Below, piece by piece: positions 7,537-8,115 of a stretch of 12,469 nt of DNA. Each line of letters begins with the position of its first letter. The stretch's first letter is position 1. The notes beneath the pieces are model-generated. The model was not told where the DNA came from and searched no databases. It saw only the letters and a program-made list of their open reading frames with translations. Source of the stretch: a virus; UHGV virus genome UHGV-0112027, one strand, 5' to 3'. Position numbers and translations under genes: made by a program.

Positions 7537-7743
7537 ATGGTTCATCAACATTACGGAACGCAGACCGTTAATCGCGGCGCGGTCATGCCAGGAATGCTGG
7601 TCAAACACAAAGATGGTACCTGGACTGCATCAGCTAATTTACGCGGACGGCTTTATCTGCATCGCGGCATCGAGCGCACTTATACCCGTGATTTGCTCGT
7701 GGAAGTTTTTCTCGACGGACGCGGTAACGGCCTGAATCACTAA
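7537..7743 (+). CDS. Hypothetical small protein (68 aa) upstream of gam, in the kil/cIII position but not resembling either
   Basis: ATG 7537 with AGGAG 5 nt upstream (track ORF 7453..7743 has no RBS at its first ATG); product [29 protein letters not shown]...; ends at the junction where lambda-like sequence begins. Confidence 0.4.
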
Positions 7744-7818
7744 TCCCCTTTCCTGTTTTCCTAATCAGCCTGGCATTTCGCGGGCGATATTTTCACAGCC
7801 ATTTTCAGGAGTTCAGCC

Positions 7819-8115
7819 ATGAACGCTTATTACATTCAGGATCGTCTTGAGGCTCAGAGCTGGGCGCGTCACTACCAGCAGATCGCCCGTGAAGAGAAAG
7901 AGGCAGAACTGGCAGACGACATGGAAAAAGGCCTGCCCCAGCACCTGTTTGAATCGCTATGCATCGATCATTTGCAACGCCACGGGGCCAGCAAAAAAGC
8001 CATTACCCGTGCGTTTGATGACGATGTTGAGTTTCAGGAGCGCATGGCAGAACACATCCGGTACATGGTTGAAACCATTGCTCACCACCAGGTTGATATT
8101 GATTCAGAGGTATAA
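7819..8115 (+). CDS. gam: Gam (RecBCD inhibitor), 98-aa short form
   Basis: Product [60 protein letters not shown]... matches the recalled lambda GamS almost exactly; AGGAG RBS; in-frame TAA at 7762-7764 upstream. Confidence 0.9.

Follow-up and report, generated by a model that had tools for sequence, protein, structure and literature searches.

The boundary between the kil-position gene and gam in this DNA is very probably the meeting point of two exchangeable lambdoid-prophage modules, with Gam made only as its short form, GamS. The window, by which we mean the whole stretch of 12,469 nt analysed (UHGV virus genome UHGV-0112027), carries as its left module a Rac-KilR-type cell-division inhibitor gene in place of lambda kil and as its right module a gam-bet-exo Red module, 98% identical to that of lambda. 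The alternative upstream genes have in common only their last codon and stop, TCACTAA, and homologous recombination in the conserved gam-proximal DNA would reassort the modules, as is suggested by the sequence beyond TCACTAA being common to many phages. Translation of Gam from the ATG at 7819 would then give the 98-residue GamS only. The boundary sits precisely where a gene ends, a typical place in lambdoid mosaicism, and is real but ordinary; it can serve as a textbook illustration of a lambdoid mosaic edge at the end of a gene.

The junction between the KilR-type gene and the Red module

Read along its + strand, the window has the orientation of the lambda pL operon and carries the following features.

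5153-5881, + strand: cI-like repressor gene, first in the gene order (PHROG-type match)
6116-7030, + strand: gene of a 304-aa DUF6414 protein (Pfam DUF6414, E 2.4e-10; phrog_9699, function unknown)
7063-7080, both strands: terminator-like bidirectional hairpin downstream of the 304-aa gene (terminator scan)
7231-7259: promoter-like site with operator-like TATCACC repeats (sequence scan)
7537-7743, + strand: gene of a 68-aa Rac KilR homologue, FtsZ/cell-division inhibitor family (PHROG, NCBIfam, BLASTP); gam, bet and exo follow it (ORF list)
7737-7743, + strand: mosaic junction TCACTAA, a His codon and stop (MAFFT, blastn)
7737-9736, + strand: lambda-like Red module of 2.0 kb (blastn against lambda; ORF list)
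7744-7818, + strand: spacer of 75 nt between the kil-position gene and gam, homologous to lambda GamL codons 16-40
7762-7764, + strand: TAA in the gam frame, 19 codons before the ATG (translation of 7744-7830)
7764-7795, + strand: predicted hairpin ATC-A-GCCTG / CGGGC-GAT (7764-7788) with an 8-nt loop, then ATTTTCA (terminator scan, MFE fold)
7802-7805, + strand: run of four T (T4), with one extra T relative to the T3 of lambda (alignment)
7807-7811, + strand: strong Shine-Dalgarno sequence of gam, AGGAG, with 7 nt between it and the ATG (read from the sequence)
7819-8115, + strand: gam, encoding the 98-aa GamS, a predicted RecBCD inhibitor (Pfam PF06064; structure matches)
8121-8906, + strand: bet
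8903-9583, + strand: exo

Similarity to lambda (J02459) began at window position 7737, where MAFFT and blastn were concordant, and positions 7737-9736 aligned with lambda 33193 to 31194 at 98.0% identity over 2001 columns (blastn). This stretch holds gam, bet, exo and about 150 nt past exo, and the kil-gam boundary is the left edge of a 2-kb lambda-type Red module. TCACTAA is the final codon plus stop in lambda kil and in the 68-aa gene of the window alike, and both types of upstream gene terminated in ...H* in the 117 related loci among the matches listed. Because TCACTAA is common to both upstream genes, the crossover can be placed only to 7736/7737-7743. We infer that this junction, which is directly visible in the alignments, was created by recombination. 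The preliminary description had proposed a junction just upstream of gam and a 1-nt indel relative to lambda, and alignment with the lambda gam/kil region (MAFFT, blastn) revealed both; its start of about 7745 for the lambda-like sequence did not hold, however, the alignment placing the start about 8 nt further left.

The product of the 68-aa gene matched PHROG phrog_294, "Kil protein for bacterial septation inhibition", with an E value of 1.3e-37. Its match to NCBIfam NF008465, "FtsZ inhibitor protein" (E 4.4e-17), reached 61.9 bits, under the cutoff of 92, and it was 36% identical to Rac KilR of E. coli K-12 over 61 aa (BLASTP, E 9e-13). These matches mark the predicted protein as a homologue of the KilR family and not as an equivalog. 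For a gene identical to this one, PGAP gives the name "phage encoded cell division inhibitor protein". There was no Pfam match at E up to 0.1, Lambda_Kil PF06301 included, and no BLASTP alignment with lambda Kil at E up to 100, in agreement with the earlier view of the gene at 7537-7743 as non-lambda. The kil position is thus taken by a gene non-homologous to lambda kil that is probably its functional analogue, and homology suggests that the 68-aa product would inhibit FtsZ or cell division. At the DNA level, a blastn comparison of the window with the Rac kilR/kilS region gave no match.

The 304-aa gene occupies the place of lambda rexAB, immediately after the cI-like repressor, and has a G+C content of about 0.38 compared with about 0.51 in the Red genes. 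It had no PADLOC match, and could be a lysogen-expressed moron or an exclusion gene. A leader of about 270 nt lies between the promoter-like site at 7231-7259 and the KilR-type gene; in 7231-7536 we found no N-like ORF and no Rfam match, and homologues of cIII, ea10 and ral were absent. At the other end, the module reaches its right limit (9736) where a 185-aa ORF (9734-10291, + strand) begins, and this ORF gave only a partial DNA methyltransferase match (phrog_111, positions 51-232 of 345; orphan MTase in PADLOC). This ORF may be a truncated gene or mark a further mosaic boundary.

The spacer: short Gam, reading frames and hairpin

Residues 1-98 of the window's Gam matched positions 1-98 of the 98 in the PF06064 model (E 3.4e-65), a full-length family match with a score of 216.8 bits against a cutoff of 25, and phmmer aligned the same residues with PDB chains 5mbv_A and 2uuz_A (E 2.5e-61). 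This GamS protein variant was the commonest among related loci, occurring in at least 46 IMG/VR loci. The AGGAG upstream of gam was kept in 14 of 16 aligned spacer types, those of most of the diverged homologues included; the Shine-Dalgarno sequence, its conservation and existing annotation all point to the AGGAG/ATG pair at 7819 as the gam start. The GamS-RecBCD complex has been solved by cryo-EM, and the GamS dimer is a DNA mimic blocking RecBCD's DNA-binding site (PMC5218532). With 98% identity to lambda GamS, the window's Gam would be expected to inhibit RecBCD by the same block (PMC5218532). GamS, the form in the structural work and the one sold as a reagent, is the protein to expect from the prophage of the window.

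In the window, the spacer at 7744-7818 is non-coding. MAFFT showed that it differs from lambda by three substitutions (7744, 7771 and 7800) and one inserted T, and is otherwise matching. At the T run (7802-7805) the window reads CAGCCATTTTCAGGAG and lambda CAGCTATTTCAGGAG, with one T more in the window; the T-to-C change at 7800 adjoins this extra T. The insertion shifts the lambda GamL frame, and the gam frame therefore runs into the TAA at 7762-7764. Between this TAA and the ATG at 7819 the 18 open codons of the gam frame contain no ATG, GTG or TTG. The neighbouring frame of the spacer encodes a peptide matching lambda GamL residues 17-36 (by translation), and it too lacks ATG, GTG and TTG codons from the stop at 7725-7727 onwards. 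The start codon of GamL and its first 15 codons sit in lambda-specific kil sequence, which is absent from the window. GamL is thus excluded twice over in the window, by the frameshift and by the absence of a start codon: an in-frame ATG about 40 codons upstream with an open frame behind it, as the long isoform needs, was not found.

These results bear out what had been proposed for the spacer. Translation of 7744-7830 confirmed the in-frame TAA, the proposed 1-nt indel is the extra T in the run at 7802-7805, and the segment described as resembling the GamL N-terminus matches lambda GamL residues 17-36. In lambda itself the GamL frame is open and does not share the stop-containing frame of the window. 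Because no start codon precedes the ATG at 7819 in either frame, only the short Gam is encodable, as the preliminary description had stated.

The spacer carries no mark of coding constraint. Among 86 unique haplotypes its nucleotide diversity was 0.038, and that of gamS was 0.019 at first, 0.014 at second and 0.044 at third codon positions, which puts the spacer near the third positions of gamS and at about twice the level of the first and second.

What the spacer does carry is a hairpin. The terminator scan matched 7768-7785, with 5 pairs (4 of them G-C), an 8-nt loop and the tail GATATTTTCA; both a stem-loop and a T-run were found, the run comprising only 4 T, and in 1.3 kb the scan reported 5 sites of this kind against an expectation of 1.3. 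From its sequence, the hairpin at 7764-7795 looks like an intrinsic terminator. The lambda tL2 terminator cluster lies in the kil-gam region, and the hairpin may correspond to lambda tL2a. Rfam gave no match in the whole window at its gathering thresholds, and within 7000-7900 only a chance CRISPR-DR match (E 0.99).

Citrobacter-, Klebsiella- and Pseudescherichia-type spacers also have a hairpin, at a comparable distance from the Shine-Dalgarno sequence of gam and with some two-sided changes. In the alignment of 16 spacer types, 71.7% of the cells were paired, as against 35-46% when the 3' partner was slid. The covariation score was 0.30, compared with at most 0.19 in controls, and none of 500 shuffles reached it, in a set that comprises about 6 independent lineages and has its structure derived from one of its own sequences. 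This covariation is suggestive of conservation of the hairpin, which may have a function.

These observations bring up an explanation of the spacer that we consider possible although unlikely, namely that it has been kept for an RNA element, such as a tL2a-like partial terminator or a signal for mRNA processing or stability, and is not a GamL remnant. Such an element would account for the hairpin and T-run of the terminator scan, for the presence of the hairpin when window and lambda are folded at minimum free energy, and for the pairing statistics and recurrence in diverged spacers given above. It would also fit the commonest polymorphism, T or C at 7771, which is neutral for pairing (G-U or G-C). 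However, the z-scores of the two folds were weak (-0.88 for the window and -1.79 for lambda), the lineages behind the covariation are few, and 4 of the 8 pairs deviate from pairing through unpaired cells only. The spacer is as diverse as synonymous sites, diverged lineages have no T-run behind the stem, and one Gam group has no spacer, gam being directly coupled to the upstream gene. A literature search on lambda tL2 terminators found no paper confirming the identification with tL2a.

In that Gam group, of Raoultella/Klebsiella type and diverged (loci L145, L240-L248, L251 and similar), the TGA of the upstream gene lies within the Shine-Dalgarno sequence of gam (TACTGAGGTG), an overlap suggestive of translational coupling.

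Frequency of the arrangement and conservation of GamL

The module boundary with a GamS-only gam is widespread. At least 120 IMG/VR loci, redundant prophages included, were collected by the exact start of gamS, and 117 loci with at least 300 nt of upstream sequence, lambda and the window being added to the IMG/VR set, were classified. These listed loci showed two types of upstream gene, lambda Kil or KilR type, both followed by the common spacer, and two T-run alleles, the T3 of lambda and the T4 of the window. The GamL ORF was open in 33 of the 117, and every one of the 33 combined lambda kil with T3. GamL was not encodable in the other 84 listed loci, 71 of which share the state of the window with 18 open codons and no start codon. 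T4 accompanied the KilR-type gene in 52 of the 117 listed loci and lambda Kil in 29; because it is found with both kil types, the modules reassort within the shared spacer.

The same alleles were counted indirectly in 5,426 complete E. coli genomes by 40-mers spanning the T run. The T4 40-mer was present in 2,237 genomes, with 2,539 occurrences, and the T3 40-mer in 900 genomes (laboratory lysogens among them), with 972 occurrences, so that T4 was about 2.6 times commoner than the lambda allele. At a coverage of at least 80%, the KilR-type/gam junction was present in 2,166 of these genomes and the lambda-type junction in 1,389. In a second sample, made up of loci similar to diverged queries, the lambda allele was over-represented; sample fractions therefore depend on the choice of loci, and the E. 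coli genome counts are more reliable. PGAP annotates a 297-nt gam at the KilR-type/gam junction and also in a true lambda lysogen of MG1655, and the record of phage 933W has a 297-nt gam downstream of a lambda-type kil. The short-Gam arrangement is thus the commonest natural one in E. coli prophages, and it was already known, annotated as 98 aa.

A few loci in these collections were unusual. In one (L058, IMGVR_UViG_2713896771_000008) no stop interrupts the gam frame over 130 codons upstream, and an in-frame ATG stands 122 codons ahead of the GamS start; this ATG falls in the KilR-type gene region, which may be fused to gam. Another (L384:536-603, IMGVR_UViG_2711768059_000010) has a GamS identity score of 1.0 to the window and a wholly different upstream sequence up to AAATTTCAGGAG, a second recombination breakpoint directly at the gam Shine-Dalgarno sequence. 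Several contig loci (L126, L128, L129, L132, L134 and others), from assemblies of Shewanella, Pseudomonas, Neobacillus, Oceanobacillus and other genera, encode a Gam 98% identical to the GamS of the window; their contigs either measure about 48 kb or are short and often of low coverage. These loci have the look of contaminating lambda control DNA, not of real prophages.

The frequencies bear on the proposal of a decaying prophage whose gam formerly encoded GamL and was recently inactivated by a frameshift, the extra T. Measured against the lambda reference, the extra T does look like a frameshift in an annotated CDS. However, the allele that would be the defective one is the commoner of the two in complete E. 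coli genomes, and the functional phage 933W and other Stx phages most likely carry it. The gamS linked to T4 is intact and under purifying selection, with the low diversity at first and second codon positions given above, and at least 11 IMG/VR loci have an 85-nt upstream sequence identical to that of the window. We rejected prophage decay, which is highly improbable, since the allele frequencies and the purifying selection on gamS contradict it.

Conservation of the GamL extension was not found in related Gam proteins. On the 138-aa lambda protein the PF06064 model covered residues 41-138 only. Variants of T3 loci were mostly non-synonymous in the GamL frame, such as Pro25 to Leu or Gln, and also included changes in C-run length. 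The GamS-equivalent methionine is the first residue of all Gam homologues with 65-73% identity (Citrobacter, Klebsiella, Raoultella and related genera), and three of these homologues have in-frame stops 1-5 codons upstream of the corresponding ATG. In 28 of 30 unique diverged haplotypes there was no in-frame upstream ATG, and the sequence encoded in the other two was unrelated to GamL. The N-terminal 40 residues of GamL were therefore not conserved among Gam homologues. The diverged loci were gathered by single diverged-protein queries; when an alignment of such proteins served as the query, the loci obtained were all 99-100% identical to the GamS of the window.

That a long Gam is still made by programmed frameshifting on the T-run or from a non-canonical start codon is next to inconceivable and was rejected for the absence of any start codon: the T4 run at 7802-7805 lies exactly where the frames would need joining and the upstream frame encodes a GamL-like peptide, but without a start codon after the stop at 7725-7727 there would be no ribosome in that frame to shift, the spacer variants include further indels and mostly non-synonymous changes, and diverged homologues stop 1-5 codons upstream of the GamS ATG.

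What GamL is in lambda can be read in two ways. Plasmid-borne GamL and GamS are both active, and the structural work used GamS (PMC5218532). GamL may matter in lambda itself, because the literature treats plasmid-expressed GamL as an active, real isoform (PMC5218532); the published accounts consulted name two isoforms. The other reading, which we put forward tentatively and hold to be doubtful, is that GamL is an accident of the lambda reference and not a biological isoform, the upstream feature conserved among enterobacterial lambdoid phages being a small RNA hairpin with a cis-regulatory role. It is suggested by GamL needing both a start inside lambda kil and the minority T3 allele, by its absence from about 70% of gam loci among the matches listed, and by its region evolving like synonymous sites. 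The population data do speak against the 138-aa "full-length" Gam of the lambda reference being conserved across the family, which is relevant to those who still clone "GamL" as the native protein.

Comparison with lambda, 933W and Rac

Lambda (J02459, 33112-33330) has a homologous spacer and gam, with the same Shine-Dalgarno sequence, ATG and hairpin as the window, and its GamS differs at 2 of 98 residues (I22L and A61S). The window differs from lambda in having T4 instead of T3 and a KilR-type gene instead of lambda Kil; its long ORF is closed by the TAA at 7762-7764 and the GamL start is absent.

From 7737 on, 933W and other Stx-converting phages (AF125520) are 99.2% identical to the window. 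Because this identity leaves about 3 differences in 384 nt, they most likely carry T4. Upstream of gam, 933W has a lambda-type kil and cIII, whereas the window has the KilR-type gene.

Rac KilR (E. coli K-12 b1352) is an FtsZ inhibitor of 73 aa, compared with 68 aa for the product in the window, which is only a distant relative. Both genes lie in the early leftward operon of a lambdoid prophage. In Rac, kilR is followed by ydaE, racC and recET, whereas in the window gam, bet and exo stand in their place.
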